Source: a virus (Duplodnaviria > Heunggongvirae > Uroviricota > Caudoviricetes). From it: a stretch of 16,615 nt of DNA. A program made the translations under genes and the position numbers. Positions within the stretch are counted from its first letter, which is position 1. Each line of letters begins with the position of its first letter. This document shows positions 3,173 through 11,371 of the stretch, piece after piece. The DNA is taken from the IMG/VR virus record IMGVR_UViG_2751185836_000001. One strand, given 5' to 3'. The notes beneath the pieces are model-generated. The model made no database searches. It was given only the letters and a program-made list of their open reading frames with translations, and was not told the origin of the DNA.

Positions 3173-3200
3173 AAAAAAGCGGAACCTGGTTCCGCTTTTT
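3173..3200 (+). terminator. Intrinsic terminator, copy 1 of the GCGGAACCTGGTTCCGC repeat
   Basis: A6-GCGGAACCTGGTTCCGC (3179-3195)-T5 just after a stop codon. Confidence 0.75.
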
Positions 3201-3205
3201 ATATT

Positions 3206-3286
3206 GCGGTCGGCTTGACGACCGGAGCGTGAGAGTTTCAACTACTCACGGAAGCCCACGCAGATGTTTGTGAGCATCAAGATTGT
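3206..3286 (+). ncRNA. Structured motif copy 1 (IS200/IS605 right-end/omegaRNA-like)
   Basis: Stem CGGTCG/CGACCG with loop GCTTGA; stem CGTGAG/CTCACG; GAAGCCCACG; loop CTTGA (3214-3218) complementary to TCAAG (3277-3281). Homologous to 8360-8442. Confidence 0.55.
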
Positions 3287-3406
3287 ACTACTCCTTTATA
3301 CGATGGCAAAAATCATATTTATTCATAACACATTTCCAGAAATATGCTTGCCTCCTCACTTCCATATTATTCTAACGAAGAAACACAGTAAAGGAGGGAA
3401 ATTGCC

Positions 3407-4413: not shown

Positions 4414-5550
4414 CTATTCTCTAAATTCATAACCAAATGATTTCGTATCATAAAGCCGCATCTGTACAGGAGCGAGATAGGAGTGGTAGATGTGGCCGAA
4501 CTGAGGGATCTGAAGAACATCAGCGGCATGATGTAAGTTTAGCAGGAATTCTTCACGGCTGAATGTAGAACCTTTAGAAGTTCCATCTTCCACCATGATA
4601 CAGTTGGGGCTGTCTTCTTCACTAAGTTTTTCATCATGCCTGTAATAGTAAAAATACATCCCTAATTCGGAAGAAAGGATTTCGGCCACGGCACCACCAG
4701 TACCATCGCCATGTTTATCTGTCTCGAAATCCGCAAATACTTCATCAGCATCTTTTCCTTCATCTATGATCTGGAGAAGCATTTTGGAACGGGCTTTGTT
4801 CGTACAGAATGTGCCACGATATTCATTCAAAAAGTCAACAAATCCTGGAGGAGTCTCCGGGTAGTGAAACCCGTACCCGAAAGTTGTTGTAATCACCTGT
4901 TTTTCGTCATCATCCCCAAAGATAGCTTTTAGAAGTCGTTCCTCCATTCTTGTTTTTTCTACCTCTTTCTTACTTCGGATTGTCGTTCCAGGCTCACCAA
5001 AATCCAGGAAGATCAAGTTGCCGTTTTCTGTTCGAGAATAGTAGATGGTTCCCATCGTCGTACACAAATTCTCCCCATCTCCCCAACGATATTCGAAACT
5101 CATTTCCTTTTCTGCCCAACGGTGTCCGTCTTCAGAGCAGGGTTCTTCCTCTTGGAAATCGAATTTTCCGTTTTCTTCCATACACAGGATTTCCATAGCG
5201 TGTAGAGCATCCGCAACAGATTTCCAAGGCTGCGAATAATCTGCTGTAACAAGGTTACTTAGGCCTTCCATAATAGCCGCTTCACAGCGTTTTACACGGT
5301 CAGCAATGGGCTCGATTTCATAGCCGCAAGCTTCCAGAAGCATCCTTTCTGTGATCGTATTCATGTGACTGGCCATATTTCTTAAAATTGCGACAGAGGG
5401 TCGCGATATTTCTTTATTGTTGAGCAATCGGTTGAGATGTTCCTTTGATATGCTGGCCTCTTCTGCAAATGCTTTTTGAGTGCGTGTCCCGATACCACGT
5501 CTTAAGAGCTCTCGGAATTCCTTGTATTCGCCTTTAGTGTCTTTTGCCAT
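4414..5550 (-). CDS. XRE-family HTH protein with a large acidic C-terminal region
   Basis: AGGAGG 8 nt upstream of the ATG at 5550; FRELLRRGIGTRTQKAFAEEASISKEHLNRLLNNKEISRPS is an HTH_3-type pattern; the remaining ~300 aa are unrecognised. Confidence 0.78.
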   Translation of the reverse strand: MAKDTKGEYKEFRELLRRGIGTRTQKAFAEEASISKEHLNRLLNNKEISRPSVAILRNMASHMNTITERMLLEACGYEIEPIADRVKRCEAAIMEGLSNLVTADYSQPWKSVADALHAMEILCMEENGKFDFQEEEPCSEDGHRWAEKEMSFEYRWGDGENLCTTMGTIYYSRTENGNLIFLDFGEPGTTIRSKKEVEKTRMEERLLKAIFGDDDEKQVITTTFGYGFHYPETPPGFVDFLNEYRGTFCTNKARSKMLLQIIDEGKDADEVFADFETDKHGDGTGGAVAEILSSELGMYFYYYRHDEKLSEEDSPNCIMVEDGTSKGSTFSREEFLLNLHHAADVLQIPQFGHIYHSYLAPVQMRLYDTKSFGYEFRE

Positions 5551-5573
5551 GATCATATCCTCCTATAACTTAA

Positions 5574-6767
5574 CTATAAATAGATGCTCTGCTTTTTCAT
5601 TGCCATCTGGATAGTCTCAAAAATACCATTTAGGAGCTGTGGCTCAATTGGTTCTTCCAGGTTTACGTTTCCAATACCGGCAAGGATAGACTCTTCGGCA
5701 AAGTTCAGCATTGGACTGAGAAATTCTTCTGCATATATTGAAAAGTTTTTCTTGATCACTGCCTCTATAAAGGGATGACAAAGAGCCTTTATTTTTTCTT
5801 CGGCCAATTCTACCGGATCACTTTCTGGATCATAAGGTTCATCCGTGCTTTCGTCCCTCTCGCAGTCATCTGCATCATCGGTCACAAGGGGATACAGGAC
5901 ATTGACGGGATCTTCCAATGCTACGGCGTCAATGTATGTACCAACCGGAAGGACCGGTTTCACCTTGGTCGGACATGGGCAGGATACGATCTCGTATAAT
6001 TCCTGTAAGGACTGTGCCGGACACCCGAATGGCGTGATATAAGGGATACCACGTGCTCCATTGTTGATCAAGGTATCTGCGTATTCCTGCAGCATCCTGC
6101 TTTCATTCCTTATGATGACCTCCGGAGCTTTGAGTGCTTTTAACTTGGCCAAGCGGCCTATTCTCAGGATCAAGCGGTTATACAGGTATTCCATCGGGAT
6201 TGGGCTCCAGGCCGGTTTTTTGTTTTTACGTTCTACTTTCTGGTACCGCAGTGAAAGCGGGATGACCGGCAGGCAGTGCAGGATGATATGTTCGTACTCT
6301 GGAGCATGCTCTCTTTTTAAGAGAGCTTCGATTGCCTCCGCTCCGCACAGACAGATAGCACCGGGGTACTCTTGATGGAATATTTCAAAATCCTTTTCTT
6401 CTACAATCTGTTTGTATCTGGCCTCTGTCTCTCCCGGCTCAATAACGACGTGTGCGCCATAATATACAATTTTCTCGATTTCTTTTCTGGGGATGCCAAG
6501 GATGCGGGGCAGGATTGGCCTGCTTCCAAATAGATACTGGATGTTGACGATCGGGATCGGGAGGGAAATGTGTCCCATCAGGGTTTCCTCATCACTCATT
6601 TTCCCGAAGATTTTGGGATCAGTCATAGACCGTTCAACAGGATCTCCCTCCTCACAAGGGGAAGGGAATATGACCTCGCCATTCGAAAACTCCAGGGTCA
6701 TCCCGTCGGTGAGTTCCGTCATTTCTGCCGCCGTCGATACATTTGTATTCATCCATCTCTTATTCAT
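5574..6767 (-). CDS. rpoC: Stand-alone RNA polymerase beta' (RpoC) N-terminal/clamp-like protein, divergent and internally deleted, no catalytic domain
   Basis: Collinear RpoC motifs: FSNGEV..P, KIFG, MGHISLPIP, EKIVYYGAHVVIEPG, GAEAIEALLK, ILHCLPVIPLSLR, LYNRLILRIGRLAKLKALKAPEVIIRNESRMLQEYADTLINNGARG, AQSLQEL. GGAGG 8 nt before ATG 6767. No NADFDGD motif. Confidence 0.85.
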   Translation of the reverse strand: MNKRWMNTNVSTAAEMTELTDGMTLEFSNGEVIFPSPCEEGDPVERSMTDPKIFGKMSDEETLMGHISLPIPIVNIQYLFGSRPILPRILGIPRKEIEKIVYYGAHVVIEPGETEARYKQIVEEKDFEIFHQEYPGAICLCGAEAIEALLKREHAPEYEHIILHCLPVIPLSLRYQKVERKNKKPAWSPIPMEYLYNRLILRIGRLAKLKALKAPEVIIRNESRMLQEYADTLINNGARGIPYITPFGCPAQSLQELYEIVSCPCPTKVKPVLPVGTYIDAVALEDPVNVLYPLVTDDADDCERDESTDEPYDPESDPVELAEEKIKALCHPFIEAVIKKNFSIYAEEFLSPMLNFAEESILAGIGNVNLEEPIEPQLLNGIFETIQMAMKKQSIYL

Positions 6768-6812
6768 CTTTTGCGCCTCCGTAATTGATATGTTATTCAT
6801 CTGGTTGATTTT

Positions 6813-6841
6813 ATTGTAATATATCAACCGAATGATGTCAA
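6813..6841 (-). promoter_or_regulatory. Near-consensus sigmaA promoter for the rpoC-like/XRE operon
   Basis: Minus strand TTGACA (6841-6836), 17 bp, TACAAT (6818-6813). Confidence 0.75.
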
Positions 6842-8271: not shown

Positions 8272-8359
8272 CTTTGAAAAAATAATTCATTTTTATATGA
8301 CGGTGGCTCGTCTGAGAAAAAGAGACTTGGCCCTCGTTTGCTACTGTGTTTATATAACA

Positions 8360-8442
8360 GCGGTTGGCTTGACAGCCGAAGCGTGAGGGATTTTCTACTC
8401 ACGAAAGCTTCTTTAATCAAAAAAGGGCATCAAGAAGATTGT
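8360..8442 (+). ncRNA. Structured motif copy 2 (IS200/IS605 right-end/omegaRNA-like)
   Basis: Stem CGGTTG/CAGCCG with loop GCTTGA; CGTGAG/CTCACG; AAGC-N18-GCATCAAGA; CTTGA (8368-8372) pairs with TCAAG (8430-8434). Confidence 0.55.
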
Positions 8443-8472
8443 GGCTATCATTATGTGAAAGGAGCGGTATTT

Positions 8473-8667
8473 ATGGAAAACAGATGCGTATGCTGCGGAA
8501 AGGTTATCCCAGAAGGAAGAATGGTATGCAAAATATGTGAGATTGAGGCAAATAACAGGCTCACATTGAAACAGAAAAAACATGCGTCAGGAAGTACGGA
8601 ACAGCCGGGTAAAAATAAAAGAAGGCTTTTCGTATGGAGAAGCAAAAAGGAGCGACTATTCAAATGA
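8473..8667 (+). CDS. Small zinc-ribbon protein (phage-type)
   Basis: RBS AAAGGAG; MENRCVCCGKVIPEGRMVCKICE carries two CxxC pairs. Confidence 0.6.
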   Translation: MENRCVCCGKVIPEGRMVCKICEIEANNRLTLKQKKHASGSTEQPGKNKRRLFVWRSKKERLFK

Positions 8668-9110
8668 GTTTTTGAACCAATATCACAGTCACCATAAGTC
8701 TGTCATCGCCCACAAGTTCTAAGTGGCGGCGAAAAAGGACGGGGAAATAGTAGGCGTTGCCATTGTAGGACGTCCGGTTGCCCGCGGCCTGGATAACGGC
8801 AGGACCCTAGAGGTGACCAGGCTCTGCACGGACAGGACAAGAAACGCCTGCAGCTTCCTGTACTCGAAATGCGCCTAAATCGCTAAAGATAAGGGGTATT
8901 CTAAGATTGTAACCTATATTCTGGAGAGTTATCCCGGGACAAGCCTGCTGGCCAGCGGGTGGACACTTGAGGAGGCGGGAGTTGGTGGAGGCAGTTGGGA
9001 TACCCCCAGCCGGAGAAGAGAGCTCATCGAAGGCCAGCTTTCTTCCTCCCCTCAGAAGGAAAAATTTCCGACAGGGAAGAAAAAAAAGATATGCAAAACT
9101 ACTGTCCGCA
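8663..9110 (+). pseudogene. XF1762-family (Mom-like GNAT) protein pseudogene
   Basis: NEFLNQYHSHHKSVIAHKF*VAAKKDGEIVGVAIVGRPVARGLDNGRTLEVTRLCTDRTRNACSFLYSKCA*IAKDKGYSKIVTYILESYPGTSLLASGW...GGGSWDTPSRRRE. In-frame TAA at 8720-8722 and 8876-8878; probable frameshift in the A-run near 9080; no clear start. Confidence 0.8.
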
Positions 9111-9188
9111 GGGAGCTTACCACAGAAAACTGCTGGCATCAGGAAATGTGTATAATTATATTATAGAAAACGAAGGAGAGGTATATTA

Positions 9189-10603
9189 ATGAGTAATACT
9201 GTCATCATCACAAGGAAATATATTCTTATTCCCGAAAAATGCAATCAAAAGATATGGAAGAAGAAGGTCAGGGATTTCCTGGCAAGCGAGATCCTCCGCA
9301 TTAATGAACTGATCTCACAAAAGGGTAATAAACAGGCCTGGAAGGAGAAGCTCAAGGCCAAAACAGAGCAGTATGAAGCTTATCTCCAGGAGTATGATGA
9401 AACAGACGTGTTCCCCGTGAAAGCTTATACGGATTACACATACAGCCTGATACGTACCGCGATGGAGGACGAGGCCAGGCGGAAGAACTACATCATGACC
9501 TGGATCTATTCCGAGATGATTGCGAATGGCGTGCAGTATATGGACTCTCTTCTCGACAAGTACAAATTCATCACTGAAACGATCAAGCCGGCTTACCGGG
9601 TGAAAGGCAGCAGCAAAGGCAGCCTTTTTGATGACGTGGAGATCAACAATATCCTTGGCGGCTATGGGAACGGATGGAACCAGGAGTTGACAGCAAAGGT
9701 TAAGGATCTGGTCAAAAACGGGTTGCTCGAAGGAAAAGTCTCCCTGGTAAACTATAAGATAGACTCCCCGTTTACCGTTCCGAAATCAACCATGCGGCTC
9801 ACGCATGACTATAGAACCTATGAGGAGTTATGTGAGCATATACATAAAAAGGACTGCAACTTATACCTGGATTACGGGTCAAAAGGCACACCAACAATAG
9901 CTAGGTTCCGGCTTGAACTGGGGACGGCCAAAAACAAAAAGATATTAAAGACGGAGCTACTCAGGCTGTACTCCGGTGAACACAAGTTATGCGGAAGCAA
10001 GATCGGTATAGAAGGAAACAAGATTGTCCTCTACATGCAATGGAGATCCCGAAAAAGGAAATCCAGTTGGACGAAAATGTCATCTGCGGTGTGGCGCTTG
10101 GTATGAACATCCCCGCGGTATGCGCACTCAATTCTTCCGATGAGAGGAGTATGATCGGATGCGCTGACGATTTTCTCCGTATCCGCGTGCAGATGCAGGA
10201 GCAGAGGAGACGCCTTCAGAGGGCTCTAAAGAGCACATCCGGCGGTCATGGACGCAAGAAAAAGCTGGCAGGCCTGGAACGGCTCAAGAAGCGGGAACAT
10301 AATTTCGTCAACACATACTGTCATTTCATCAGCAAGAGCGTGGTAGATTTTGCCGTAAAGAACAAGGCGAAATATATCTACCTCCAGGATCTGGAAGGCT
10401 ATGACACCAATAAGTTTGTCCTGCGAAATTGGAGCTACTATAAGCTCCAGGAGGATATCACTTACAAAGCGGAGCGCTACGGTATCATAGTACAGAAAGT
10501 AAAGGCTGCTCCTGTCAAAGAAGTAAAAGATCTGGATTATGAAGCTCTTATTAAAGTCGATTACGAAACTGCCAGAGGTATCGCCCTTACAAATGCAGCA
10601 TAA
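9189..10603 (+). pseudogene. Cas12f/TnpB-like protein, predicted nuclease-dead, split by one frameshift at ~10038 (~471 aa if joined)
   Basis: ORF 9189-10106 ends ...KIVLYM and continues in another frame as MEIPKKEIQLDENVICGVALG...GGHGRKKKL...HFISKSVVDFA...YIYLQDL...LRNWSYYKLQ..ITYKAE.YGI...VDYETARGIA. These are Cas12f-type WED/RuvC motifs. Confidence 0.85.
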
Positions 10604-10620: not shown

Positions 10621-10652
10621 GCCCTGTCTACAGTCGTAGGCGGGGCATTTTT
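10621..10652 (+). terminator. Hairpin plus U-tract after the Cas12f-like gene
   Basis: GCCCTGTCTAC-AGTC-GTAGGCGGGGC (11 bp including G-T pairs), followed by ATTTTT. Confidence 0.65.
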
Positions 10653-11002: not shown

Positions 11003-11371
11003 ATGACCATCAAAGATTTTAACCCGGGACAGAAAATTTATGTATTATATATGAAAAAAGGATATAACGCAGCGCCGGAGCTCTTCGAGAGAAAAGTGGT
11101 AAAGGTCGGCCGCAAATACATCACGGACGACAGGGGCTGCCGATTTTATGAGTCAGATATAATTTTGTCATCAGACAGGCGCACACATGTCTTCTTAGAA
11201 GACCGTGAGTTCGGTGAGAAGGGATTTCTGTTTGCGACCAAAGAGGAAGCGGACTCCTGGGTTGAACTGGACGAGCTGGAGAAATGGTTGGCAACGATCC
11301 GTTGCAATAACCATCCGTATACGGTCGAGCAGTTGCGAAGAGTGAAGGAAATCCTGGAACCGGATGTATAA
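11003..11371 (+). CDS. Hypothetical phage-type protein
   Basis: RBS GGAGGG; DFNPGQKIYV...VVKVGRKYIT is a pattern common in Firmicute phage small proteins. Confidence 0.72.
   Translation: MTIKDFNPGQKIYVLYMKKGYNAAPELFERKVVKVGRKYITDDRGCRFYESDIILSSDRRTHVFLEDREFGEKGFLFATKEEADSWVELDELEKWLATIRCNNHPYTVEQLRRVKEILEPDV

Follow-up and report, generated by a model that had tools for sequence, protein, structure and literature searches.

A frameshifted prophage copy of a nuclease-dead Cas12f without a zinc ribbon, and its cognate guide RNA genes

The 16,615-nucleotide (nt) stretch of Caudoviricetes DNA analyzed here (IMG/VR record IMGVR_UViG_2751185836_000001; hereafter the window) carries a frameshifted copy of a 471-amino-acid (aa) type V-F1 Cas12f, in which the RuvC nuclease center has been inactivated and the target-nucleic-acid-binding (TNB) zinc ribbon excised. 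The copy belongs to a clade of dead proteins (clade A) which, as shown by covariation in the RNA, has retained its co-evolved cognate guide RNA genes in a reduced form, as single guides or single repeat-spacer units. By analogy with known systems, the most likely function of the protein is RNA-guided DNA binding without cutting, together with repression of a conserved target, and this assignment is made with moderate confidence. The features of the gene are as follows.

9189–10603, plus strand: nuclease-dead, zinc-finger-less Cas12f gene, 471 aa on read-through, split by a 1-nt deletion
10035–10042, plus strand: frameshift site, ATG-CA-ATG in the window and ATG-ACC-ATG in intact homologs, that is, a Thr codon minus one base
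10094–10096, plus strand: RuvC-I position, GCG (Ala); Asp in intact relatives (GVDLG to GVALG)
10385–10387, plus strand: RuvC-II position, CAG (Gln); Glu in intact relatives (INxENL to IYLQDL)
10505–10555, plus strand: linker of about 17 residues, AAPVKEVKDLDYEALIK, in place of the TNB zinc ribbon CxxC...CxxC
10559–10561, plus strand: RuvC-III Asp, kept; GAT in KVDYETA, aligned with NADFNAARN

Translation showed that two overlapping plus-strand open reading frames (ORFs), 9189–10106 and 9989–10603, together span the gene. A preliminary description, made from the letters of the window alone, had located GVALG at 10094–10096, LQDL at 10385–10387 and VDY at 10559–10561, and these positions were confirmed by translation and codon reading. 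Alignment with intact relatives likewise bore out the replacement of the CxxC...CxxC module by a short linker at 10505–10555; the corresponding segment of the relatives reads QICSVCGNW...FECANENC. The catalytic triad reads A-Q-D throughout the clade, the window copy included, so that the complete D-E-D of Cas12f is lacking, as is the TNB zinc ribbon, the Pfam Cas12f1-like TNB model being matched over 24 of 60 positions. The C-terminal ORF matches the NCBIfam models guided_TnpB (2.8e-26) and Cas12f2 (1.6e-11), and the match ends at residue 173, just short of the zinc ribbon. The RNA/DNA-binding motifs GGHGRKKK and RNWSYY..Q..I.YKA, described earlier as retained, both fall on nearly invariant columns of the family alignment.

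Nearly all intact relatives have mini-CRISPR arrays of 2–5 repeats with a period of about 66 nt, located downstream of the gene and often upstream of it too. Each array is preceded by a module in which hairpin 1 (CGGnnG-ATTTTG-CnnCCG) is followed by AAnGTGAGG-loop-CACTCACyAAAA, an anti-repeat CTATGT complementary to the ACATAG of the repeat, and then the 36-nt repeat itself. A covariance model built on 36 of these array-preceding scaffold modules detected two guide RNA genes in the window, both upstream of the dead Cas12f gene and on the same strand.

8351–8455, plus strand: guide RNA gene 1; model match at 8351–8422, 49.7 bits, E 1e-6
3197–3300, plus strand: guide RNA gene 2; model match at 3197–3269, 28.2 bits, E 0.01

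Guide RNA gene 1 is composed of hairpin 1 with the loop GCTTGA, the GTGAGG/CTCAC hairpin, the anti-repeat and a repeat remnant ending in TCAAG (8430–8434), after which guide 1 begins at 8435 (AAGATTGTGGCTATCATTATG...). Gene 2 has the same scaffold with compensatory changes in stem 1; its TCAAG lies at 3277–3281 and guide 2 begins at 3282 (ATTGTACTACTCCTTTAT...). In the window the scaffold is linked to the repeat remnant via a short loop and makes a natural single guide; some clade members have kept one or two full repeats (L016 at 6046, L068 at 194). All clade A loci examined likewise gave a model match upstream of their dead gene. An Rfam scan of the window returned just two sub-threshold chance matches. 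The motifs that had been called omegaRNA-like in the preliminary description are these same two RNAs, and they proved to be cognate guide RNAs of the protein family on the evidence of the covariance model, the pseudoknot and the covariation. The description had further stated that tnpA, cas1/2 and a CRISPR array are missing from the vicinity. This holds for tnpA, for cas1/2 and for a multi-repeat array, none of which is present in the window, but instead of an array there are two trans-activating CRISPR RNA (tracr)-type scaffolds, each continuing into a repeat remnant and a guide. As no tnpA or Y1 transposase is found in the window, the gene does not have the setting of a mobile IS200/IS605 TnpB.

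Among 57 aligned modules, the two hairpins were paired in 89.5% of cells compared with 27–48% in slid controls; compensatory changes occurred in 12 of the 15 pairs and the covariation score was 0.51, versus at most 0.09 in the controls. In ten covarying variants, among them TTTTG/CAAAA, CTTTG/CAAAG, TTCGA/TCGAA, TTCAG/CTGAA and the clade-specific CTTGA/TCAAG, the five bases of the hairpin 1 loop were an exact complement of the final five of the repeat. Eight clade A modules carry CTTGA/TCAAG, and the loop of the ninth (L072 858) was unreadable. It is shown by this pattern of substitutions that a predicted pseudoknot between the tracr loop and the repeat end has co-evolved to CTTGA/TCAAG in clade A. 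The pseudoknot sets the end of the repeat and therefore the start of the guide.

The guides themselves are conserved between loci. L070 has the scaffold and guide 1 without any change, and L071 differs at one loop base; the ORF that follows has many substitutions. Guide RNA gene 2 is identical in L003, and guide 2 matches at 17 of 18 positions in L072, L004 and L005. The L072 locus, whose protein is 76% identical, diverges from the window past the first 18 nt of guide 2, and this conservation suggests an effective guide length of about 18 nt. It was also observed that guide 2 (region 3282–3309), in reverse complement, reads as a generic ribosome-binding site (RBS) plus start region (ATAAAGGAGTAGTACAAT[G]), and that a promoter-like TTGCCA-16-TACAAT on the minus strand overlaps guide 2; either may be due to chance. 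In the L068/L016 lineage, guide RNA 1, upstream of the dCas12f gene, is flanked by putative tRNA-like sequences, GGTTCGAGTCCC and GGTTCGATCCCC (L068:1540–1640 and 2090–2140). Stand-alone natural single-guide RNAs at dispersed sites were seen, too, in an intact 437-aa Cas12f lineage (L051, L052, L061), in the first of these loci at the following positions.

1353–1425, 2898–2970 and 7284–7356 of L051: single-guide RNAs, tracr joined to a repeat remnant by a short loop

The collapse from array to single guide therefore occurs in nuclease-active members as well.

The nature of the RNA bears on the possibility that the protein is a decoy or protector in phage-phage conflict, soaking up the guide RNAs of rival phage Cas12f systems or occupying its own target sites and shielding them from a rival's active Cas12f, with no part in gene regulation. 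Such a role would suit the parent family, a phage weapon with mini-arrays. However, the scaffold and repeat end of clade A have co-evolved into a form particular to it (CTTGA/TCAAG, where relatives have TTTTG/CAAAA and other variants), and its guides are fixed and conserved. A dedicated cognate RNA is therefore favored over hijacking, and the decoy is considered unlikely.

A search with the N-terminal ORF returned full-length proteins of 470–471 aa, together with many relatives of 511–533 aa at 42–54% identity. Among the former, P0003 (100 member sequences) is 98% identical, and P0004–P0006 are 69–72% identical over the N-terminal query and 75–77% over the full length. P0003–P0006 all share GVALG, (L/M)QDL and VDYETA and are all without the CxxC...CxxC segment; most of the long relatives have GVDLG, ENL or EDL, two Cys pairs and NADFNAARN. 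The dead clade consists of four 90%-identity clusters with about 130 sequences. It was sampled here through the proteins P0003–P0006 and the loci L001–L006, L016, L017 and L068–L072, and a scan of JGI metagenomes contributed four further clade A loci. These are carried by prophage-like elements, mostly in human gut metagenomes, and from the relatives the host family would be Lachnospiraceae. No clade A member was found in the representative genomes searched, and megablast of the whole window against a phage database gave no match.

Every other sampled clade A member has an intact ORF. By the method of Nei and Gojobori, the ratio of nonsynonymous to synonymous divergence (dN/dS) was 0.12 between the window and L017, at a dS of 0.14, and 0.06 between L016 and L068, at a dS of 0.86; in deeper pairs of the clade synonymous sites were saturated and dN was about 0.16. 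On these ratios the dead clade is under strong purifying selection, with the protein maintained and only the window copy broken. Since an intact clade with Ala, Gln and no zinc ribbon exists under such selection (dN/dS 0.06–0.12), the loss of catalysis is older than the frameshift, as the preliminary description had argued. The same description had proposed a search for an intact clade of this kind with dN/dS<1 and had named a simple pseudogene as the alternative; the clade having been found, that alternative fails.

The one missing base, expected near 10038, was located between 10037 and 10038 by alignment to L017, an intact gene that is 95% identical (TACATG-CAATGGAG in the window, TATATGACCATGGAG in L017), and there is no homopolymer at this place. 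The joined reading 9189–10037 + X + 10040–10603 gives 471 aa without a further stop. The frameshift is private to the window copy, because P0003 is encoded without change on the metagenome contig L070, whose DNA upstream of the gene is one base off the window. Programmed frameshifting was ruled out, as the site is non-slippery and homologs of 98–100% identity are in frame. The window copy is probably inactive, unless the deletion is a sequencing error. In a separate observation, the window and L017 were near-identical over the first ~800 nt of the gene and about 91% identical over the last ~600 nt (dS 0.04 vs 0.30), a difference in divergence that suggests a recombination breakpoint inside the dead Cas12f gene, near the frameshift.

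Plain decay would make the whole clade a non-functional remnant of phage Cas12f and its RNA motifs leftovers. It would account for a frameshifted window copy beside a broken gene and for guides to which no target was found, and is contradicted by the intact ORFs elsewhere, by the dN/dS of 0.06–0.12 with saturated synonymous divergence and by the compensatory changes in the RNA. For the clade it is largely refuted and we rate it as very improbable, but it is the likely state of the window copy if the deletion is real.

The family profile was compared with the PDB, where CnCas12f1 (8hr5) came first at 1.8e-89, with Al3Cas12f (9nzo) at 5e-73, AsCas12f at ~1e-52 and Un1Cas12f at ~1e-37; 8j12, 7wju and 7c7l were matched too. 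The Bacteroidota dead Cas12f (dCas12f) 9n9c scored 2.5e-36 and ISDra2 TnpB merely 4e-4. An AlphaFold2 model of P0003, the intact 98% homolog, was obtained from an alignment of 46 sequences (predicted local distance difference test, pLDDT, 86.4; predicted template modelling score, pTM, 0.70), and its top Foldseek matches were 8hr5_A (4e-24), AsCas12f, 9n9c and Un1Cas12f. The protein thus resembles Cas12f1 in both sequence and fold across the WED/REC/RuvC core. Fifty relatives sit on IMG/VR viral contigs of 12–213 kb, almost all with D-E-D and the zinc finger; relatives in genomes come from Clostridium sp. AF37-5, Anaerotignum, Lachnospiraceae and Pseudobutyrivibrio. Judged from these comparisons, the parent system is a phage-borne, CRISPR-associated type V-F1 Cas12f rather than an insertion sequence (IS) element. 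In a maximum-likelihood tree, clade A was monophyletic with 100% support and was nested, at 97%, among intact array-bearing members; its descent from phage-borne, catalytically intact Cas12f nucleases is shown by this phylogeny. Of the double label TldR/dCas12f-like that had been given to the gene, the second half fits; the first does not, the ancestor being a phage CRISPR Cas12f and not an IS-borne TnpB.

Tree and alignment indicated that inactivation arose at least six times in the family, in clade A and in five other lineages. One of these, clade B, has D changed to Y and the zinc finger deleted, with two mini-arrays still following the gene, on contigs of up to 308 kb. The others are a D-to-N group with the zinc finger, a D-to-H group, a group that has lost RuvC-III and a C-terminally truncated E-to-K group. 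The approximately unbiased (AU) test rejected A and B as a single clade (p 0.0025, for a grouping named after the tree had been viewed); RuvC-I loss with excision of the zinc ribbon therefore arose at least twice. Of 129 full-length proteins, each representing a 50%-identity cluster related to P0003, 102 had D-E-D and the zinc finger; the other 27 were without a catalytic residue, and at least 13 of those 27 were zinc-finger-less as well. In the clade B locus L007 (219 kb), two tracr-plus-mini-array units with five repeats in total were noted at 9440–10010.

These data also speak to whether the protein is still a nuclease that cleaves DNA or RNA with the RuvC-III Asp and substitute residues. 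The Asp is indeed conserved across the clade, yet no member retains the other two catalytic carboxylates, which have given way to Ala and Gln, and all have lost the zinc ribbon. The same combination arose independently in clade B and similar ones in many of the 50%-identity clusters, as is typical of exapted binders. Continued cleavage is hence held to be the least probable of the explanations considered.

RNA-guided binding without cutting has precedents. Derivatives of Cas12f and TnpB that have lost nuclease activity bind DNA under RNA guidance and regulate transcription (PMC13472631; 10.1101/2023.11.30.569447), and Cas12m, as reviewed in PMC11656645, silences by blocking transcription. In the mechanism proposed here, the dead Cas12f, probably as a Cas12f-type dimer, would load the fixed guides and bind complementary DNA beside a short target-adjacent motif without cutting it. 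Transcription of a conserved target, located in the host or on a competing mobile element, could then be blocked by the bound complex in a manner similar to CRISPR interference. The repression step is drawn by analogy with TldR, Cas12m and dCas12f, not from observation.

Searches for such a target were made in several sets of sequences. With up to 3 mismatches, guides 1 and 2 matched the window at themselves alone; the clade A guides and clade B spacers gave nothing convincing against all related loci. Exact 20–24-mers of four clade A guides had zero matches in IMG/VR, and those of two clade B spacers had none either. In 401 Lachnospiraceae genomes, the guide-2 18-mer had 30 matches at up to 1 mismatch, compared with ~17 for a reversed control. 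This excess is small, and the exact matches, which fall on the ribosome-binding sites of unrelated genes, were rejected as generic RBS look-alikes; by eye, the matched genes presumably include a glycoside hydrolase (312-aa ORF) and a membrane protein (391-aa ORF). The guide-1 20-mer gave 2-mismatch matches only in these genomes. One 21/23 match of guide 1 lies within a gene of the AraC family, and the guide reads DCGYHYV in one frame; this is a weak lead and not a finding.

Several points weigh against the proposed function. No guide target was found in the window, the related loci, IMG/VR or the 401 Lachnospiraceae genomes. RNA binding, DNA binding and the absence of cleavage are predicted properties, and the RuvC-III Asp is still present. 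In active Cas12f the zinc ribbon, excised here, helps to handle nucleic acids, and the clade may therefore bind them differently. Repeat ends and conservation served to place the boundaries of the guides. Finally, the window copy is frameshifted and the adjacent gene at 8668–9100 is also broken, which may mean that decay of the element is under way in this genome.

The gene is accompanied by putative expression signals and by several neighbors, which are listed below.

9147–9156, plus strand: extended -10 promoter-like element TGTGTATAAT, ~35 nt 5' of the start codon; consensus match only
9173–9181, plus strand: RBS AAGGAGAGG; consensus match only
10621–10646, plus strand: intrinsic terminator hairpin and T run, 3' of the gene; consensus match only
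8473–8667, plus strand: small CxC..CxxC zinc-ribbon ORF of 64 aa, MENRCVCCGKVIPEGRMVCKICE..., directly 3' of guide RNA 1
8668–9100: broken ORF between the zinc-ribbon ORF and the dCas12f gene, GVAIVGRPVARGLDNGRTLEVTRLCTD...
11003–11371: Phage_ProQ_C_like gene, 122 aa (PF24203, 2.4e-9)
5574–6827, minus strand: beta'-domain-1 fragment adjoining an XRE gene; the cassette spans 4414–6827

The promoter-like element is kept in L017, L070 and L071, and the terminator stem is preserved in L001 through compensatory changes. In most clade loci the zinc-ribbon ORF separates guide RNA 1 from the dCas12f gene. It starts ~20 nt past the inferred end of guide 1, and the guide region overlaps its RBS; in L001 it stands immediately before the dCas12f gene, in an operon-like arrangement. 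A Cas12f without a zinc ribbon of its own thus has a separate zinc-ribbon gene in front of it. The broken ORF at 8668–9100, which resembles that of a GNAT/XF1762-type protein, has TAA in the window and L070 where L071 has TCA, and the window and L070 lack ~90 nt at its start; the L071 version had no Pfam match. In each clade A locus examined, the dead Cas12f gene is followed by the Phage_ProQ_C_like gene, whose product is a possible RNA-related partner. The element further encodes a tyrosine integrase and a phage-type helix-turn-helix (HTH)-RNase H protein, and synteny among the clade loci gives the dead gene a fixed position within the prophage-like element.

The neighbors raise the question of whether the dead Cas12f acts as an RNA-guided recruiter or activator, bringing in a transcription factor to activate genes or re-route RNA polymerase. 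The beta' clamp fragment, a host sigma factor, the XRE protein, the small zinc-ribbon protein and the ProQ-C-like protein are the candidates for what is recruited. There is a precedent in dCas12f-sigmaE (PMC13472631), and its structure 9n9c is among the fold matches. A beta'-domain-1 gene with an HTH gene lies 2.4 kb upstream in the window and is also present in L001, L003–L006 and L072, and the ProQ-C-like and zinc-ribbon genes accompany dCas12f after it in all clade loci and before it in most, respectively. However, L002 and L016, in which the flanking genes are kept and abut, do not have the beta'/XRE cassette, and it is missing as well from the flanks of all intact relatives examined. The co-occurrence with the beta' fragment suggested in the preliminary description is hence facultative, the cassette being missing in two element types of the clade. 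Moreover, no sigma-factor domain was detected in any plausible ORF of the window, nor is one listed among the called genes of the clade loci. Recruitment is accordingly viewed as improbable. Its most specific form, in which the dead Cas12f and fixed guides would be the targeting arm of a Firmicutes-prophage transcription-reprogramming module that recruits a partner to activate or re-route transcription, appears more doubtful still; the partner may be the minimized, sigma-binding beta' clamp, the XRE protein, the co-transcribed zinc-ribbon protein or the ProQ-C-like protein. Within the cassette, the XRE gene is 97–99% identical between the window and the L001 lineage and the beta' fragment just 57–58%, a contrast in identity that points to recent recombination.

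RNA-guided binding with repression, the preferred reading, can be placed beside the systems already described. The known dead Cas12f groups are from Bacteroidota, sigmaE-linked or array-linked, and described as C-terminally truncated (PMC13472631). Clade A is similar to dCas12f and dCas12f-sigmaE of that phylum (Hoffmann et al., Nature 2026, PMC13472631; 9n9c) in its Cas12f fold, inactivated RuvC and lost zinc-binding part, in what appears from sequence to be a single chimeric guide RNA with a 3' guide, and in having no adaptation genes; the fold match of 9n9c to the clade model had a template modelling (TM) score of 0.60, normalized to the target. It differs in its independent origin, its nearest relatives being intact phage Cas12f of Clostridia, and in having point substitutions and an internal deletion with RuvC-III kept, rather than a C-terminal truncation. 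It has no rpoE neighbor, whereas dCas12f-sigmaE has an operonic sigma factor of the extracytoplasmic function (ECF) type with a C-terminal extension, and its setting is a prophage.

TldRs derive from IS-borne TnpB (Wiegand et al., 10.1101/2023.11.30.569447) and include prophage-encoded fliC repressors (PMC13418256). Like clade A, they are RuvC-dead proteins of the TnpB/Cas12 superfamily, often prophage-encoded, with a nearby fixed guide RNA and inferred to be DNA-binding repressors. Unlike clade A, they descend from IS200/IS605 TnpB, with an omegaRNA-type guide overlapping the 3' end of the gene; the RNA described here has a tracr/anti-repeat/repeat architecture and is encoded upstream, and the ancestor is a CRISPR-associated Cas12f. 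For clade A, no association with a target gene of the fliC or oppF kind was found. With type V-F1 Cas12f1 and its mini-arrays (CnCas12f1, 8hr5; Al3Cas12f, 9nzo/9nzr), the clade shares the family, the two-hairpin scaffold with a pseudoknot and a mobile-element host, but active Cas12f1 proteins keep D-E-D, CxxC...CxxC and arrays of 2–5 repeats, whereas the RNA of the clade has shrunk to single guides. Cas12m (type V-M) and Cas12k (type V-K) offer an analogy in RNA-guided DNA binding without cleavage and in their mobile elements. They are distant (E 0.001 or weaker), larger and have other RNAs, and Cas12k works with Tn7-like transposition genes, none of which is present here.

Within the literature searched, in which journal coverage was partial, no account of a dead Cas12f lineage from prophages of Clostridia was found. 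So far, natural RNA-guided transcription factors from dead nucleases have come from IS-borne TnpB (TldR) and from Bacteroidota Cas12f (dCas12f-sigmaE). The present locus appears to be a repetition, in a new lineage, of this known evolutionary switch from nuclease to RNA-guided binder, with the same exaptation arising independently within a phage-borne Cas12f weapon of gut Clostridia. One family with active nucleases and at least six inactivated lineages, two of them zinc-ribbon-less, provides a natural series from nuclease to binder, and its compact, zinc-finger-less Cas12f scaffolds of ~470 aa with natural single guides are potential programmable binders. That the guides are conserved implies that their target is too, whether it lies in the gut host or in competing phages, and the identity of that target would reveal what the prophage gains from silencing it.

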